A DNA stretch of 36,762 nucleotides from a bacterium (lineage in GTDB: Bacteria; Patescibacteriota; Minisyncoccia; Minisyncoccales; UBA10102). The DNA is taken from assembly GCA_030699785.1 (NCBI GenBank), contig JAUYLB010000040.1, forward strand, positions 1-36,762. The letters are read 5' to 3'. How positions within the stretch are numbered: position 1 is the first letter of the stretch; each line of letters begins with the position of its first letter. The notes beneath the pieces were generated by a model that did no database searches, was not told the DNA's origin, and was given only the letters and a program-made list of their open reading frames with translations. The position numbers were made by a program, and so were the translations under genes. This document shows, piece after piece, positions 14,482 through 36,762 of the stretch.

Positions 14482-14506
14482 ATGTCGCAGTTATTGTATC
14501 CTCCAA

Positions 14507-14641
14507 ATTACGTAACTTTTTGCTCGGATATATTTTTGCCGCGGACCGTCATAAAATCCTGCTGGATTTTTGACTCGCTCTCGCGCCGTCGCGCTTCCGA
14601 GGGCCGCTACAAAAACATATTCCTCACTAAGTTTCGTAATT
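14507..14641 (-). repeat. ~135-nt hairpin repeat, copy A (inverted orientation)
   Basis: The reverse complement reads ACGAAACTTAGTGAGGAATATGTTTTTGTAGCGGCCCTCGGAAGCGCGACGGCGCGAGAGCGAGTCAAAAATCCAGCAGGATTTTATGACGGTCCGCGGCAAAAATATATCCGAGCAAAAAGTTACGT. It lies between the dnaE stop and the thrS start. Confidence 0.9.
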
Positions 14642-14650
14642 TGGAGTGTA

Positions 14651-20762: not shown

Positions 20763-20820
20763 GCCCATGACTTCCTCCAAAGAAGATGGGGGACTAGCAT
20801 GTTTATTTATTTTCCAATAA

Positions 20821-20858
20821 TTGCGTCAAATTTCAACCATGGTTGAAATTTGACGCAA
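20821..20858. repeat. 38-bp perfect palindrome, family P, copy 1
   Basis: TTGCGTCAAATTTCAACCATGGTTGAAATTTGACGCAA. It is flanked symmetrically by the direct repeats CTAGCATGTTTATT (20793-20806) and CTAGCATTGTTTAC (20871-20884). Confidence 0.85.
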
Positions 20859-20957
20859 ATGTAAATCTGGCTAGCATTGTTTACCTTGACGACTCTGTAG
20901 CACCGCGGTACCATAGACTCATACAAAGGGTCTTAATAAATATAACATAGATATACT

Positions 20958-22893: not shown

Positions 22894-22901
22894 TTTTATT
22901 G

Positions 22902-23036
22902 AATTATAAAAATCAGTGAGGAATATGTTCTTTGGAGAGACCCTCGGAGCGCGACGGCGCGAGAGTGAACCAAAAATTTAGCAGAATTTTATGGTGTTCT
23001 CGGAAAAGAATATATCCGAACGAAAAGTTTATAATT
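22902..23036 (+). repeat. ~135-nt hairpin repeat, copy B (most diverged)
   Basis: AATTATAAAAATCAGTGAGGAATATGTTCTTTGGAGAGACCCTCGGAGCGCGACGGCGCGAGAGTGAACCAAAAATTTAGCAGAATTTTATGGTGTTCTCGGAAAAGAATATATCCGAACGAAAAGTTTATAATT. Confidence 0.88.
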
Positions 23037-23081
23037 AAAAACAATAAAGGTCGGATTATAGGTCTAAAACCCATCGCTTCC

Positions 23082-23684: not shown

Positions 23685-24131
23685 ATGGCAAGTAGGCACC
23701 TCTCCAGATCTATTGTCATGCAGTCCCTGTATGAATGGGATTTTCAACACAATCGAGATCCCAACATGCTCGAAAAAGTTTTAGAGCGCAACCTAGAAGA
23801 GTTTGGTCCTGGACTTGAGGAATCCAATCAACAGTTTGTCCGCTCGCTTGCGCAAGGAGTTTTGGAGCATATTTCACAGCTGGACACCATTATTGAAAAA
23901 GCGGCTCCCGATTGGCCACTCGACCAGATTACTGTGGTAGATCGCAATGTTCTGCGCCTGGGTCTTTTTGAGCTTCTCTATAGCAACAAAGACGAAGTGC
24001 CTCCAAAAGTAGCTATCAATGAAGCCATAGAGCTTGCCAAGAACTTTAGCGGAGAGCCGTCCGGAAGATTTGTAAACGGGGTACTCGGAACTGTGTTTCG
24101 AGAACTCCAAGAACAGAATAAAGAATCATGA
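23685..24131 (+). CDS. nusB: Transcription antitermination factor NusB
   Basis: SRSIVMQSLYEWDF, VDRNVLRLGLFELLY, INEAIELAKNF and FVNGVLG. Confidence 0.9.
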   Translation: MASRHLSRSIVMQSLYEWDFQHNRDPNMLEKVLERNLEEFGPGLEESNQQFVRSLAQGVLEHISQLDTIIEKAAPDWPLDQITVVDRNVLRLGLFELLYSNKDEVPPKVAINEAIELAKNFSGEPSGRFVNGVLGTVFRELQEQNKES

Positions 24132-24841
24132 TCAGTCGCCTGTACGAATCATACAGATTCAATATACTTGAAGAGAACCTTCAGGTCTCATTTATTCAAA
24201 AAGACCTGCTTGTGCAGGGATTTGTGCACCGCTCTTACTTGAATGAAAATCCTGCTATTCCCGTTTCCCATAACGAACGACTGGAGTTCTTGGGAGACGC
24301 CGTGCTAGAGCTTGTGGTAACCGAATACCTTTACAAACACTACCCAGACAAAACTGAAGGAGAGCTGACTTCCTGGAGAGCCGCTCTGGTAAACACCAAG
24401 ATGCTTTCCTCTCTTGCCCGAGATCTGGGATTCAACGATTACCTTCTGCTCTCAAAGGGAGAACAGAAAGAAGAGGGGAGGGCTAGAGAGTTTATTCTTG
24501 CCGATACCTTTGAAGCTTTCACGGGAGCGCTTTACCTTGACCAAGGACTCCAGGTGTGCAAGGATATGATGGTCCGCACCCTCTTGCCTTGTTTGTCTGA
24601 TATTATAGACCAAAAACTGTTCCAAGACGCAAAGTCTCGCCTGCAAGAATTGGCTCAAGAAAGGCTTAGCGTCACCCCAACATACAAAGTGATTCAGGAA
24701 ACAGGGCCCGATCACGCCAAGCGCTTTCAAGTAGGCGCCTACCTGAATGGCGACATGATCGCGGAAGGAGAAGGATTCTCTAAACAAGAAGCAGAAGAAG
24801 AAGCGGCAAAACGAGCCCTTGAAGTAAAAGAGTGGAAGTAA
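24128..24841 (+). CDS. rnc: Ribonuclease III
   Basis: Signature ERLEFLGDAVLELVV plus a C-terminal dsRBD (GPDHAKRF ... GEGFSKQEAEEEAAKRAL). Confidence 0.95.
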   Translation: MISRLYESYRFNILEENLQVSFIQKDLLVQGFVHRSYLNENPAIPVSHNERLEFLGDAVLELVVTEYLYKHYPDKTEGELTSWRAALVNTKMLSSLARDLGFNDYLLLSKGEQKEEGRAREFILADTFEAFTGALYLDQGLQVCKDMMVRTLLPCLSDIIDQKLFQDAKSRLQELAQERLSVTPTYKVIQETGPDHAKRFQVGAYLNGDMIAEGEGFSKQEAEEEAAKRALEVKEWK

Positions 24842-25566: not shown

Positions 25567-25573
25567 ATATATT

Positions 25574-25711
25574 GAATCGCGAAACTCTTTACTCGGATAC
25601 GCTTTTGGAGAGGCACGCTGTAAAATCTTGCTAGATTTTCAGCTCGCTCTCGCGCCGTCGCGCTCCGAGAGGCCCTCCAAAAGCATATCCTTCGCACAAG
25701 TTTCGTGATTC
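25574..25711 (-). repeat. ~135-nt hairpin repeat, copy C (inverted orientation)
   Basis: The reverse complement reads GAATCACGAAACTTGTGCGAAGGATATGCTTTTGGAGGGCCTCTCGGAGCGCGACGGCGCGAGAGCGAGCTGAAAATCTAGCAAGATTTTACAGCGTGCCTCTCCAAAAGCGTATCCGAGTAAAGAGTTTCGCGATTC. Confidence 0.9.
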
Positions 25712-25732
25712 AAAAAATGGATATATTATACC

Positions 25733-26454: not shown

Positions 26455-26587
26455 ATTGTAAAACTCTGTGAGGAATATGTTTTTGAAGCGGCCCTCGGAG
26501 CGCGACGACGCGAGAGCGAGTCAAAAACTCAGTAGAGTTTTATGACGGTCCGCGGAAAAAATATATCCGAACAGAGAGTTTTGCAAT
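26455..26587 (+). repeat. ~135-nt hairpin repeat, copy D
   Basis: ATTGTAAAACTCTGTGAGGAATATGTTTTTGAAGCGGCCCTCGGAGCGCGACGACGCGAGAGCGAGTCAAAAACTCAGTAGAGTTTTATGACGGTCCGCGGAAAAAATATATCCGAACAGAGAGTTTTGCAAT. Confidence 0.92.
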
Positions 26588-26642
26588 TCAGTATGAATCT
26601 GTTGTCAAGGCGAGTTCTTTGTGGTACAAGAAAGGAGTCATA

Positions 26643-26727
26643 TGGGTCGGTGGCAGAGTGGACAATTGCACGTGGCTGTAAACCACGCGGCCTTGCGCCT
26701 ACGGGGGTTCGAATCCCTCCCGGCCCA
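26643..26727 (+). tRNA. tRNA-Tyr (GUA), long variable arm
   Basis: Acceptor GGGTCGG/CCGGCCC, anticodon stem ACGTGG../CCACG with loop CTGTAAA, a long variable arm, and a T arm containing TTCGAAT. Confidence 0.88.
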
Positions 26728-26758
26728 CATTCGTATCAATGCGTGCGCGCCCGAGTAG

Positions 26759-26829
26759 TTCAACGGCAGAACGGATCCATGGTAAGGATCAAACAGGAGT
26801 TCGACTCTCCTCTCGGGCTCCCGGCAAGA
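26759..26829 (+). tRNA. tRNA-Thr (GGU)
   Basis: Acceptor GCCCGAG/CTCGGGC, anticodon stem GATCC/GGATC with loop ATGGTAA, T arm AGGAG-TTCGACT-CTCCT. Confidence 0.88.
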
Positions 26830-26840
26830 TTCATGGTTGT

Positions 26841-26880
26841 GGGTTATAAGTTATAAGTCATTAGTTATAAGTCATCTATT
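26841..26880 (+). repeat. C-depleted GTTATAAG tandem tract immediately upstream of rpmG
   Basis: GGGTTATAAGTTATAAGTCATTAGTTATAAGTCATCTATT. It shares GGGTTATAAGTTAT with 29308-29321. Confidence 0.7.
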
Positions 26881-27054
26881 ATGGCAGCAAAAAGAAAAAA
26901 GGTATTCGTAAAGCTTAAGTGCGAGACATGCAAGGATGTGAACTACTTCACCAGAAAATCCAAGATACTCACATCAGAAGGAACCAAGTTAAATCTCAAA
27001 AAATTCTGCGCCTCTTGCAGAAAGCACGTCAAGCATGCTGAATCAAAGAAGTAG
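26881..27054 (+). CDS. rpmG: 50S ribosomal protein L33 (57 aa, below the ORF-track length cutoff)
   Basis: My translation is MAAKRKKVFVKLKCETCKDVNYFTRKSKILTSEGTKLNLKKFCASCRKHVKHAESKK, which shows the CxxC..CxxC L33 pattern. Confidence 0.88.
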   Translation: MAAKRKKVFVKLKCETCKDVNYFTRKSKILTSEGTKLNLKKFCASCRKHVKHAESKK

Positions 27055-27078
27055 TATTCCTGTCATACAGCAGGAATT

Positions 27079-27151
27079 GGGGATGTGGTGTCAATGGCTA
27101 GCACAACGGTCTCCAAAACCGTTAGTCTAGGTTCGAATCCTAGCATCCCCG
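27079..27151 (+). tRNA. tRNA-Trp (CCA)
   Basis: Acceptor GGGGATG/CATCCCC, anticodon stem ACGGT/ACCGT with loop CTCCAAA, T arm CTAGG-TTCGAAT-CCTAG. Confidence 0.9.
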
Positions 27152-29188: not shown

Positions 29189-29345
29189 ATATCCGCAGAC
29201 AGCAGGCACCCCGTAAGACCTGCCGAGGATAAGCTTTATCTGTGTTGGTAAGCTTATATTGTCTGCGAAAGCAGGCTTTTTTGTTTAAAAATCTAGGTCG
29301 CAGTTCTGGGTTATAAGTTATCAGTTGTTCGTTAATAGTTAATGT
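29189..29345 (+). promoter_or_regulatory. Structured rplJ 5' leader, a possible L10-leader-type autoregulatory element
   Basis: Closing stem CGCAGACA (29194-29201) with TGTCTGCG (29260-29267). Inner hairpins GCAGG/CCTGC and ATAAGCT/AGCTTAT. A second GCAGGC (29271-29276) is followed by T6. Confidence 0.45.
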
Positions 29346-30297: not shown

Positions 30298-30306
30298 ATA
30301 TTTTGT

Positions 30307-30440
30307 ACTACAAAACTCGGGCGAGGGATATGTTTTTGAAACGGCCCTCGGAGCGCGACGGCGCGAGAGCGAGTCAAAAACTCAGTAGAGTTTTATGACG
30401 GTCCGTGGAAAAAATATATCCGAGCAAAGAGTTTTGCAAT
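30307..30440 (+). repeat. ~135-nt hairpin repeat, copy E
   Basis: ACTACAAAACTCGGGCGAGGGATATGTTTTTGAAACGGCCCTCGGAGCGCGACGGCGCGAGAGCGAGTCAAAAACTCAGTAGAGTTTTATGACGGTCCGTGGAAAAAATATATCCGAGCAAAGAGTTTTGCAAT. Confidence 0.92.
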
Positions 30441-30459
30441 GCGTAAAAGATGGTTTTGA

Positions 30460-32580: not shown

Positions 32581-32650
32581 TTGTTTTTGTTGTCTTAACT
32601 CAATACTGTTTTGTATCGCTCTGACTGCCAATCGGTAGCTGTATCTAAAA

Positions 32651-32688
32651 TTGCGTCAAATTTCAACCATGGTGAGAATTTGACGCAA
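32651..32688. repeat. 38-bp palindrome, family P, copy 2
   Basis: TTGCGTCAAATTTCAACCATGGTGAGAATTTGACGCAA, with 2 mismatches to perfect symmetry and to copy 1. Confidence 0.85.
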
Positions 32689-32811
32689 AAGATTTTCTGA
32701 GACAGTTTTAAGATAACGTGTTGGTTCTTGATGTTTGCCCTTGATGATTCTATTGGGGGCTGTTTTTGTTTGGCTTACATTGCCTGTGCATAACCCTTGC
32801 ATAACGGGTAC

Positions 32812-34526: not shown

Positions 34527-36233
34527 ATGACAAGAGGTCTTTTTGCGCACTGGAGGGAGTATCTTGTTCTTGCATGCATCATTATGTTTGGATTTATGGT
34601 GATTGCCAAGCTTGCCTCCCTTCAAATTTTCAATCACGGATTATATAAAGCTCTGGCGCAAGGCCAGCAACAAAAAAGTTCCCTTCAGGTAGGGGAGCGA
34701 GGCACTATCTATATGCAAGACAAGCAGAGAAGGTTGGTGCCCCTGGCAACCACACATGATATTTCATTTCTCTATGCTTCTCCTCAAGATGTTGAGGATA
34801 CCAAAAATACGTCTACCGCTTTGGCCATTATTTTAGAACAGAATCAAGAAACTATCTTTTTGCGCCTAGAGCAAAAAGATCGTTTATTCTCTCAACTTTC
34901 GCGCCAACTCACCCAAGAACAAGAAGAGATGGTGCGCGTAGCAAACCTTCCAGGCATTCATATTGGAAAAGAAGCAAGGCGCCTCTATCCTCAAGGAACG
35001 CTTGCCTCTCACGTGGTTGGGTTTATCAATCAGGACGGCATGGGACAGTACGGATTGGAGGCCTACTACCACGAAATTCTTCAGGGAAAAGAAGAATTAT
35101 TAGACATGACTCAAAATCCCGCAAGATACCTTAGACAGGCATTTGGATCAACCCCAGAACGAGGCGCCTCTCTTGTTCTTACCATTGATTCAGGAATCCA
35201 GTCATTTGCCGAAACAGCTCTTGATAAAACTGTAGAACGTTTGAACGCCAAAGAAGGAACCATCATTGTGGCAGACCCTTTTACCGGAAAAATTCTCGCT
35301 CTTGCCACAACTCCTCGATATGATCCAAATGAGTACACCATGGTCTCAAACTTTTCTCTGTTTATAAATCCTGCCACGCAAAATCTGTATGAGCCGGGTT
35401 CTGTTCTTAAGGCACTCACCATGGCAGCCGCGCTGGACAGAGGTGTTATCACTCCAGATACTCTATATAAAGACACGGGAAGTGTGCGCATTGGAGGAAG
35501 AACAATATCAAATTACAACAATAGGGTGTTTGGAGAGCAGACCATGACACAGGTACTGCAATTCTCTATTAATACGGGAGCAGTATTTGCCCAGCAACAA
35601 CTCGGAGACAGCGCGTTTATGGAGTACCTGGAGCGGTTTGGCATTTTTGAAAAAACAGGCATTGATTTATCGGGAGAAGCATTTTCTCGAAACACCGAGT
35701 TTAAAAAAGGATACGCGATTAATTTTGCTACTGCCTCGTTTGGACAAGGAATTGAAATGACCGCCATGCAAGTTGTGCGCATATATAGCGCGTTTGCCAA
35801 TGGAGGATTTTTGGTGCAACCTCACCTTGGAGAAAAGATTATTGTAAACGGAGAAGAACAAGTCTTGGAATATCCTGTGTCTATAACCGCTGTTCTCTCT
35901 CCAAAAGCAAGCGCGCAGATTACCCACATGCTTGAACGCGTATTAGAAGACGGATTTGGCAAACAGGCTCGTATCCCTGGATATAAAATGGCAGGAAAAA
36001 CAGGAACTTCTCAAATTGCCTGGTCGGCCCTGGGAATTCAAAAACCAGGATACTCCGATCAAAGCATACAGTCATTTGTGGGATATGGGCCCACGTCCAA
36101 CCCACAGTTTGTTATTCTGATTTCTCTAAGAGACCCCCAAACCAAGACCGCCGAATACTCCGCCATGCCTCTTTACAAAGAGGTGGCGCAATATATTCTT
36201 GATTACTACGCTATTCCTCCAGACGCTGACTAA
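34527..36233 (+). CDS. ftsI: Penicillin-binding protein, class B transpeptidase (FtsI / PBP2-like)
   Basis: An N-terminal TM helix, a PBP dimerisation domain, SxxK (GSVLKA), SxN (ISNYNN) and KTGT (GKTGTSQ). Confidence 0.9.
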   Translation: MTRGLFAHWREYLVLACIIMFGFMVIAKLASLQIFNHGLYKALAQGQQQKSSLQVGERGTIYMQDKQRRLVPLATTHDISFLYASPQDVEDTKNTSTALAIILEQNQETIFLRLEQKDRLFSQLSRQLTQEQEEMVRVANLPGIHIGKEARRLYPQGTLASHVVGFINQDGMGQYGLEAYYHEILQGKEELLDMTQNPARYLRQAFGSTPERGASLVLTIDSGIQSFAETALDKTVERLNAKEGTIIVADPFTGKILALATTPRYDPNEYTMVSNFSLFINPATQNLYEPGSVLKALTMAAALDRGVITPDTLYKDTGSVRIGGRTISNYNNRVFGEQTMTQVLQFSINTGAVFAQQQLGDSAFMEYLERFGIFEKTGIDLSGEAFSRNTEFKKGYAINFATASFGQGIEMTAMQVVRIYSAFANGGFLVQPHLGEKIIVNGEEQVLEYPVSITAVLSPKASAQITHMLERVLEDGFGKQARIPGYKMAGKTGTSQIAWSALGIQKPGYSDQSIQSFVGYGPTSNPQFVILISLRDPQTKTAEYSAMPLYKEVAQYILDYYAIPPDAD

Positions 36234-36267
36234 GCCTTTTCAAAAGCCAAAATATAAGGTATCTTGA

Positions 36268-36353
36268 ACTACGAAACTCGGGCGAGAGATATGTTTTTGA
36301 AACGGCCCTCGCAGCGCGACGGCGCGAGAGCGAGTCAAAAACTCAGCAGAGTC
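36268..36353 (+). repeat. ~135-nt hairpin repeat, copy F, left part (truncated after the apical loop)
   Basis: AACTACGAAACTCGGGCGAGAGATATGTTTTTGAAACGGCCCTCGCAGCGCGACGGCGCGAGAGCGAGTCAAAAACTCAGCAGAGTC. Confidence 0.88.
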
Positions 36354-36621
36354 GGGGCGCAAAGTACATACAAACATAAGATTTAGAAGCTTCTGCGTGA
36401 TATGATTTCAAGGCGCGACGACGATGGAGTAGCCAGAGCTACTTCAAGGAGGAGCAACGCAGAAATCAGTCACGCAGGAGCTTCCCAAAGGGCGGGCCTC
36501 TTTTACCCATCTTCTGCGTTGCTTGTCGCTCATGTGCCGTTTGGCACACATTACTCCTCGCGCCTTGAAGCTGGATAAAAGAGGCTCCGCTAAACTAATG
36601 TTTGTATGTGCTTTGCGCCCC
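36354..36621 (+). repeat. 268-bp element bounded by terminal inverted repeats, nested in repeat copy F (MITE-like or structured RNA)
   Basis: The terminal inverted repeats are GGGGCGCAAAGTACATACAAACATAAGATTTAG and CTAAACTAATGTTTGTATGTGCTTTGCGCCCC. The interior holds two inverted modules and no ORF. Confidence 0.75.
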
Positions 36622-36723
36622 CAGCGGCTCTCGGAGCGCGGCGGCGCGAGAGCGAGTCAAAAACTCAGCAGAGTTTTATGACGGTCCGCGGAAAAAATAT
36701 ATCCGAGCAAAGAGTTTTACAAT
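36622..36723 (+). repeat. ~135-nt hairpin repeat, copy F, right part
   Basis: CAGCGGCTCTCGGAGCGCGGCGGCGCGAGAGCGAGTCAAAAACTCAGCAGAGTTTTATGACGGTCCGCGGAAAAAATATATCCGAGCAAAGAGTTTTACAAT. Confidence 0.88.
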
Positions 36724-36733
36724 GAAGAACACC

Positions 36734-36762
36734 ATGAAGACTCTTGTTATTGTTGAGAGCCC
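36734..36762 (+). CDS. topA: DNA topoisomerase I, 5' end only (runs off the window)
   Basis: MKTLVIVESP matches the characteristic TopA Toprim N-terminus (LVIVESPAKAK). An in-frame ATG at 36722 overlaps the repeat end. Only about 10 codons are visible. Confidence 0.5.

Follow-up and report, generated by a model that had tools for sequence, protein, structure and literature searches.

The 36,762-nt contig JAUYLB010000040.1 from a bacterium of the Patescibacteriota (assembly GCA_030699785.1), referred to below as the window, ends shortly after a composite locus in which one copy of a ~140-nt intergenic hairpin repeat (the host repeat) is split by a 268-nt insert at 36354–36621. According to our reading this insert, here called the twin-hairpin element, is a non-autonomous, hairpin-rich mobile element residing in one host-repeat copy, and the repeat sequence overlapping on its two sides originated from that single copy; to this statement as a whole we assign a probability of about one half. 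That the insert taken alone is a member of a widespread, structured family resembling miniature inverted-repeat transposable elements (MITEs), nested here in the host repeat, we consider highly probable. The flanking 50–52 nt are the host repeat's own core on both sides and represent neither an att site nor a normal target duplication.

Structure of the split repeat and of the insert

The locus had been described in an earlier interpretation of the letters alone (the sequence-only reading) as a repeat copy split by a 268-bp insert and flanked by a 50-nt duplication, which direct reading and local alignment bore out. The stretch CGGCCCTCGCAGCGCGACGGCGCGAGAGCGAGTCAAAAACTCAGCAGAGT at 36303–36352 comes back as CGGCTCTCGGAGCGCGGCGGCGCGAGAGCGAGTCAAAAACTCAGCAGAGT at 36625–36674 with 47/50 identity; taken in register, the overlap amounts to 52 nt (36301–36352 versus 36623–36674, 48/52). 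The left part of the repeat ends with AGAGT (36352), 4–5 nt beyond the loop of the second small hairpin, and the right part resumes at 36623 with the inner stem's first strand, AGCGG, and continues to the 3' arm. One C per junction (36353 and 36622) can be assigned to neither insert nor repeat, the junctions being AGAGTC/GGGG on the left and CCCC/CAGCGG on the right. In silico deletion of the insert together with one 52-mer restored the consensus repeat. The features of the locus are as follows.

36264–36352, + strand: left partial repeat, comprising the 5' arm, the 5' strand of the inner stem, the first small hairpin and the second up to AGAGT; 84/89 identical to the copy at 30305–30445
36301–36352, + strand: left repeat core, 52 nt; 48/52 identical to the right core, 50/52 to the unlinked copy at 30305
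36354–36621, strand unassigned: twin-hairpin element, non-coding; basal stem, two long hairpins and a short central hairpin
36354–36383, + strand: left terminal arm, GGGGCGCAAAGTACATACAAACATAAGATT, pairing with 36592–36621
36384–36488, + strand: hairpin 1, sense unit of type A, CAAGGCGCGA-CGACGA...GGAGGA-GCAACGCAGAA; pattern match at 36409–36464
36484–36492, + strand: central hairpin CCC-AAA-GGG, which is CCC-TTCG/GAAG-GGG in relatives; conserved in the full-length alignment and in the unit flanks of other phyla
36488–36591, − strand: hairpin 2, unit of type B, CAAGGCGCGA-GGAGTAATG...GAGCGACAA-GCAACGCAGAA; pattern match at 36512–36567 on the − strand
36592–36621, + strand: right terminal arm, inverted repeat with the left arm
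36623–36674, + strand: right repeat core, from the alignment with the left core
36623–36723, + strand: right partial repeat, with the complete inner three-way junction and the 3' arm, only the 5' arm missing; 95/101 identical to the copy at 30305

The general plan of the element is a 25–45-bp basal stem bearing two ~100-nt hairpins in convergent inverted orientation. Each hairpin consists of a conserved irregular helix, (TT)CAAGGCGCGA ... GCAACGCAGAA, with a variable stem-loop as cap. The terminal inverted repeats of the window copy are 30 nt long and 90% complementary, with all of the outer 24 nt paired (one G-U), and the basal stem covaries among relatives (alignment columns 6–31 with 264–290). 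The minimum free energy calculated for the element RNA is −142.1 kcal/mol (z = −12.9; opposite strand, z = −12.3). When the whole locus is folded (z = −12.5), the 3' arm of the right part pairs with the 5' arm of the left part and the element forms a separate domain.

Covariance model R1 scored 73.2 bits on hairpin 1 (E = 2e-18) and 81.5 bits on hairpin 2 (E = 1e-20; only 7.5 bits on the opposite strand). These are the only two units in the window, the next best score being 14 bits, and the unit pattern CAAGGCGCGA-N35-GCAACGCAGAA likewise gave two matches, with 0.00 expected. By both pattern and R1 the 36.7-kb contig thus contains a single copy of the element. No credible open reading frame (ORF) was seen in it, the longest one (58 aa) spanning the hairpins. 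Rfam 15 returned no match at E ≤ 10 in 36200–36762, and for the whole window only tRNAs at gathering score. Its length of 268 nt (<~600 bp), lack of coding capacity and terminal inverted repeats are features of MITEs.

Relatives, strand-specific folding and mobility

Relatives were collected with the exact unit pattern, taking one genome per species. At least 120 loci from more than 10 phyla match; several copies per genome are common, often at contig ends. Groups among the matches listed are Myxococcota, Gamma-, Beta- and Deltaproteobacteria, Planctomycetota (Brocadiaceae), Verrucomicrobiota, Bacteroidota, Gemmatimonadota, Elusimicrobiota, Atribacterota, Firmicutes and Patescibacteria. A uniform-composition estimate puts the chance expectation for the whole scan at ~8 matches, and three loci (L079, L092 and L119) look spurious. 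A narrower pattern gave 17 metagenome loci. With relatives at more than 130 loci the insert is far from unique, which supports the earlier view that the 268 bp are foreign to the repeat copy. Viral contigs gave no match to either the element or the host repeat, and no plasmid match was returned by blastn with either the window element or the gamma form. The literature, searched by sequence strings and by concept, did not yield the family; as far as we could find, it has not been described and is new to Rfam 15 and to the literature searched.

Seventeen full-length Patescibacteria copies, including that of the window, align over the whole ~270 nt with fixed polarity. Their order is a type A unit (CGACGA...GGAGGA), a CCC-TTCG-GGG hairpin and a type B unit on the other strand (GGAGCGA...AGCGACGA). 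Of the 83 pairs in their consensus structure, 65 are kept via compensatory double changes. The arms of the window copy (GGGGCGCAAAGTACATACAAACAT...) are a diverged form of the common arms (GGGGNGCAGGATTCGAAC...), both sides having changed in concert. In every lineage the unit sits atop a stem that is lineage-variable but still paired. The ~270-nt layout as such is shared by Halomonas, Verrucomicrobiota, Brocadiaceae and further groups, and it covaries in Patescibacteria and beyond. Applied across loci, R1 detected a second, more diverged unit abutting the first, always in the order '+ then −'.

The outer stem of the unit, P2, shows 13 covarying pairs among 57 diverse units. Substitutions in this stem are strongly asymmetric, with 113 G-U pairs versus 25 A-C mismatches, and the sense strand folds more stably than the antisense strand in 60/74 units (by a mean of 6.4 kcal/mol, p = 2e-10). 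Since neutral decay of a duplex would give equal G-U and A-C counts, it follows that the unit is selected as a folded single strand of one polarity, this strand being either RNA or single-stranded DNA. As the dimer puts one sense unit on each DNA strand, any transcript through it would carry one functional unit.

Four known structures were compared by eye and rejected: the hairpin ribozyme (AGAA is present, but neither the N-GUC strand nor loop B), the kink-turn (bulge and G-A positions do not fit), the integron attC site (the AAC triplet is without a GTT partner) and the retron non-coding RNA (there is no reverse transcriptase and the element is multi-copy).

In multi-copy lineages the family behaves in a MITE-like manner, as judged by clean ends and TA or TAA/TTA target duplications. 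Eight Halomonas copies are >98% identical over ~265 nt and have exact ends, GGGCCTGTTGACG...CGTCAACAGGCCC, with TA flanks within YTAR. Among Brocadiaceae, seven copies have the ends GGGTGCGG...GGGCCC and either TAA or TTA as flanks. A single-unit form of ~190 nt from gamma- and deltaproteobacterial metagenome-assembled genomes (MAGs) has the ends AGGAACCTCTGAT... and TA flanks. At least 9 copies are present in Halomonas 2-214 and at least 11 in one Brocadiaceae MAG; the Patescibacteria copies are single. A diverged relative of the Halomonas element, unannotated and TA-flanked, resides on a 398-kb IncP megaplasmid of P. aeruginosa (NZ_CP017294.1, 8549–8819), where it lies between acyl-CoA dehydrogenase and CoA-transferase genes. 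Plasmids of Azotobacter chroococcum carry relatives as well.

A TA duplication is the usual mark of IS630/Tc1-mariner transposases, and a 3-bp TWA/TNA duplication that of IS5/PIF-Harbinger-type transposases; the element is presumably moved in trans by a DDE transposase of such a TA/TWA-duplicating kind. One extra match to the Halomonas end, considered as an autonomous parent, proved to be spurious and lies inside a gene. No protein family recurs beside the units; nearby ORF clusters consist of generic paralogues, for instance response regulators or ABC transporters.

Two Patescibacteria relatives reside at helix tips in 23S rRNA genes. At locus L134 a 287-nt insert replaces a 15-nt loop at a helix tip, and at L128 an insert of ~310 nt replaces 34 nt. 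L134 (1–3376) contains further 23S insertions of 173, 60, 36 and >100 nt, together with a 24-nt sequence (ATCTGACCTCCGAAGTCCGACATC) that is directly repeated at a distance of ~200 nt to either side of the element. At L128 a group I intron match (574–792, 70.8 bits) directly follows the 3' end of the 23S rRNA match. Four Saccharibacteria copies lie directly upstream of the 5' end of a tRNA gene (L106, 1214–1288/1290; L095, 1421–1506/1507; L120, ~230/235; L037, 2373/2481). A resemblance to the last ~20 nt of a tRNA is also apparent in the common terminal arms (...TAGTTCGAATCCTGCNCCCC), though no T-stem can form.

Origin of the flanking overlap

The host repeat is present in the window in five intact copies and in the sixth, split copy at 36264–36723. 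The intact copies are the following.

14500–14645, − strand: intact copy, from the repeat alignment
22900–23040, + strand: intact copy, from the repeat alignment
25572–25718, − strand: intact copy; inner stem kept through compensatory changes
26455–26600, + strand: intact copy, from the repeat alignment
30305–30445, + strand: intact copy, from the repeat alignment; closest to the split copy

They fold into a long stem ending in a three-way junction with two small hairpins (z = −4.9 to −9.0). An invariant hairpin, GCGC-GACG-GCGC, is part of the repeat, and copies always lie directly after genes. No Rfam match was obtained with the two copies tested (25572–25718 and 26455–26600), and the repeat core is absent from all 140 fetched loci. 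A relationship of the host repeat to the unit of the element was rejected, R1 matching no repeat copy. Where the window has the copy at 30305 (30298–30459), the related contig L121, whose penicillin-binding protein (PBP) is 72% identical, has a plain G+C-rich hairpin after rplL (696–741, AATCAAACCGCCCGC...GCGGGCGGTTTGATT). Hence, the host repeat is a lineage-specific insertion at a terminator-like position.

In the five other window copies the core is 42–50/52 identical to the left or right core and is the most conserved part of the repeat. The two cores therefore match far better than chance allows without adding independent support for a duplication. Among unlinked copies, that at 30305 agrees with the left core at 50/52 positions, and those at 30305 and 26455 agree with the right core at 48/52. 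The longest run identical in the left and right cores is 32 nt, and they differ at 3–4 positions.

A single-copy origin is supported by the arrangement of the parts. Of the two outer arms, the left part retains only the 5' one and the right part only the 3' one. The parts agree in orientation, their register is exact, and each directly adjoins an end of the element without intervening DNA. The copy at 30305 is the nearest one to both arms (34/37 left, 47/49 right). Of the four differences between the cores, three occur on one side alone and are not polymorphisms shared within the family, and the left core has changed (CTCGC) at a column that is invariant in all other copies. The overlap would then stem from one repeat copy, part of which was duplicated by a non-canonical event at or after insertion, possibly through repair synthesis or template switching at the two stacked hairpins, and the redundant left core may have been decaying since.

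Several observations weigh against this proposal. With 48/52 identical positions, the two cores resemble each other no more than they resemble unlinked repeat copies. Neither TA/TWA nor any other short target duplication could be seen at the window junctions, so that the flanks as they now stand are not those left by an undisturbed transposition. Direct repeats of such length flank 0/22 other testable copies (~18 distinct loci); the best scores were ≤43 as compared with 85 here, and none abutted the element. The overlap is therefore not the insertion mode of the family, and the proposed duplication would be a one-off. No fetched locus yielded a transposase with matching ends, and the element was seen only once in the contig. 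The three contigs most closely related to the window (L121–L123; PBP 68–72% identical) are non-syntenic downstream of the PBP gene, and no empty or unsplit site occurs among them. Finally, the orientation of units relative to neighbouring ORFs showed no bias in a crude test and hence gives no support for a role at the RNA level.

The alternative that fares best, possible if doubtful in our view, assumes separate origins of the two flanks: the element inserted after AGAGT in one repeat copy or allele and before AGCGG in another, and homologous recombination across the 268 nt then joined the outer flanks. The apparent 50-nt duplication would thereby arise without any long target duplication, which agrees with the absence of long flanking repeats from the family and of a short target duplication from either junction. 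The sequence-only reading had leaned towards such juxtaposed copies because of their differing termini and of a mispair between left ACGG and right CCGCGG. Each of these two arguments comes down to one base. The left terminus, CTACGAAACTCGGGCGAG, differs from CTACAAAACTCGGGCGAG at 30305 by one G/A, with a G-U pair to the right arm still possible, and the mispair is a single A-C. In favour of separate origins, the inner-stem base differs, the left part reading ACGG, as at 30305, and the right part GCGG, which matches its own CCGC partner, as at 26455 and 14500. Against separate origins, two independent insertions in the same orientation into the same repeat family would be needed, and no second copy of the element is seen in the 36.7 kb. 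Recombination between distant copies would also rearrange the chromosome, yet the window is an ordinary run of housekeeping genes. The private core differences and the common closest copy of the two arms mentioned above likewise count against two source copies.

An assembly chimera is clearly unlikely. It would require two element copies in two repeat copies, the assembler having crossed from one to the other within their identical 268 nt, a stretch exceeding short-read length. The contig is metagenome-assembled and ends only 39 nt past the composite locus, and related contigs often break at such elements. The other five repeat copies were, however, assembled through without trouble, and the two cores, given their 32-nt identical run and 3–4 differences, are not collapsed copies. 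A second element copy is not known, though another contig could hold one.

Less probable still is that there was no insertion and that the whole 460 nt evolved as one structured RNA of modular hairpins, i.e. a topA leader or a processing site between the PBP gene and topA. In its favour, folding of the locus gives a single multi-branch structure (z = −12.5), the genes to either side both lie on the + strand with no terminator predicted, and the repeat provides topA with a possible Shine-Dalgarno sequence and a start codon. Nevertheless, the 268-nt module is found, identically delimited, in contexts and phyla that are unrelated, both flanks belong to a dispersed repeat, and the relatives have different DNA downstream of the PBP gene.

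Site-specific integration, with the 50-mers as attL/attR of a small integrative element that carries the repeat core and uses a tyrosine or serine recombinase encoded elsewhere, had been offered as an option in the sequence-only reading and is hardly credible: the direct repeats are of att-like length and abut the insert, and several Saccharibacteria relatives adjoin tRNA genes and have arms resembling a tRNA 3' end, but the window encodes no integrase, transposase or other recombinase, none of the 22 other testable copies has long flanking repeats, the TA/TWA duplications and inverted ends of the relatives are marks of transposition, and the 50-mer, being the conserved core common to a dispersed repeat, is not specific to the junctions. 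The related statement that 50 nt far exceed a usual transposase target duplication was confirmed. Multi-copy relatives carry TA/TWA duplications of 2–3 bp.

Genomic setting and known systems

The composite locus of ~460 nt occupies the spacer between the PBP gene and topA, both on the + strand.

34527–36233, + strand: class B PBP gene (FtsI/PBP2-like), upstream of the composite locus; Pfam Transpeptidase match, 4.5e-66
36722–36762, + strand: start of topA, with in-frame ATGs at 36722 and 36734; contig end at 36762

That these two ATGs are in frame, as noted earlier, is true on direct reading, and the first of them (36722) uses the last bases of the repeat. The 3' arm of the repeat (36709–36736) also provides AAAGAG, a possible Shine-Dalgarno sequence 8–13 nt upstream of ATG 36722. 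Judged from the sequence, topA may start 12 nt before 36734, on repeat-derived sequence. Neither a terminator nor a good promoter is predicted in the spacer. With both genes on the + strand, the composite locus would therefore be transcribed as a spacer or leader. Owing to its long stems, the element RNA may be a substrate of RNase III, the gene of which is present in the window (24128–24841).

The window stems from an uncultured, Patescibacteria-like bacterium and carries housekeeping genes and a gene for a DUF5671 protein. No integrase, transposase or recombinase was found among the 30 larger ORFs scanned, all being housekeeping or unassigned. Downstream of the PBP gene, L121–L123 have tRNA-Glu, other hairpin repeats or a Mur ligase gene; in L122 (3520–3583) and L123 (1670–1800) a different hairpin-repeat family (ACACCCGGGG...AACGGCTCCGCGGGAG) occurs there together with a tRNA-Glu gene. 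The window contains two further kinds of repeat. An unrelated near-perfect palindrome of 41 nt (AATTGCGTCAAATTTCAACCATGGTTGAAATTTGACGCAAA) is found at 20819–20859 and 32649–32689 (93% identity, both intergenic), and short direct repeats of the GTTATAAGT type lie at 26836–26886 and 29303–29339, near a tRNA cluster (26644–27151).

Nested repeats are ordinary; the unusual part of the locus is the insert. Between lineages as different as Patescibacteria, Halomonas, Verrucomicrobiota and anammox bacteria, hardly a base of its twin-hairpin module differs, while the ends vary. We have considered a further-reaching proposal, rather unlikely as a whole, according to which the ~55-nt irregular helix is a functional RNA module, self-processing or recruiting a universal host factor, that renders its carrier harmless where transcribed. 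The overlap would then be the record of a hairpin-directed insertion independent of a transposase. This would explain why the module is kept by carriers with differing terminal repeats and duplication types (TA versus TWA), why the dimers have one sense copy per strand, and why, across more than 10 phyla, the element can reside in operon spacers and tRNA leaders as well as in 23S rRNA helices. If the module does have its own function, a structured nucleic acid of wide occurrence would have been overlooked, and it would offer a way to study how essential RNA genes are colonised by small elements. In annotation, the family accounts for broken contigs and for ~270-bp spacers left unannotated in many genomes, the P. 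aeruginosa megaplasmid among them.

The element shares traits with several known systems. REPINs and BIMEs are inverted doublets of repetitive extragenic palindromic (REP) sequences moved by RAYT transposases. They resemble the twin-hairpin element in having two inverted hairpin-forming units and single-stranded, strand-specific folding. The twin-hairpin units, however, are ~100 nt long, each forms its own hairpin, and they have neither a GTAG/CGTC tag nor an associated RAYT gene; moreover, the relatives have target duplications, and Y1 transposition makes none.

IS1397 and ISKpn1 insert in REP loops, and IS110-family elements in REPs. The window locus is similar in that a mobile element lies near the hairpin loop of a dispersed intergenic hairpin repeat. 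Those insertion sequences are autonomous, make short or no duplications and use a defined position in the palindrome, whereas the twin-hairpin element is non-coding and one such insertion has been seen.

Intervening sequences of 23S rRNA are insertions at helix tips that RNase III cuts out. The classical ones sit at helices 25 and 45 and, to our knowledge, share no sequence with the twin-hairpin element. A survey of rRNA insertions in the Candidate Phyla Radiation lists many short unclassified insertions, taken as intervening sequences of the RNase III type, and does not describe the element (PMC11270868). The two Patescibacteria relatives that replace a 23S helix loop are alike in that their long basal stem extends the helix. 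In contrast, the window copy lies outside rRNA genes, and the element is also a dispersed transposon.

Close parallels are also found in bacterial MITEs, examples being Correia/NEMIS of Neisseria, ERIC/IRU and RUP (Delihas review, PMC2229807). Like these, the element is short, non-coding and intergenic, has terminal inverted repeats and would form a long hairpin if transcribed; its relatives are multi-copy with exact ends and TA or TWA duplications, and the window copy is nested in another repeat. Unlike in MITEs, no parent insertion sequence was found in the fetched loci, and the window copy is without a target duplication. Known MITE families are each confined to a genus or family, whereas the ~55-nt module of the twin-hairpin element is nearly unchanged across more than 10 phyla. 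It is this internal module that is conserved, the terminal repeats being lineage-variable, and it is set apart from MITEs by strand-specific covariation as a single strand.

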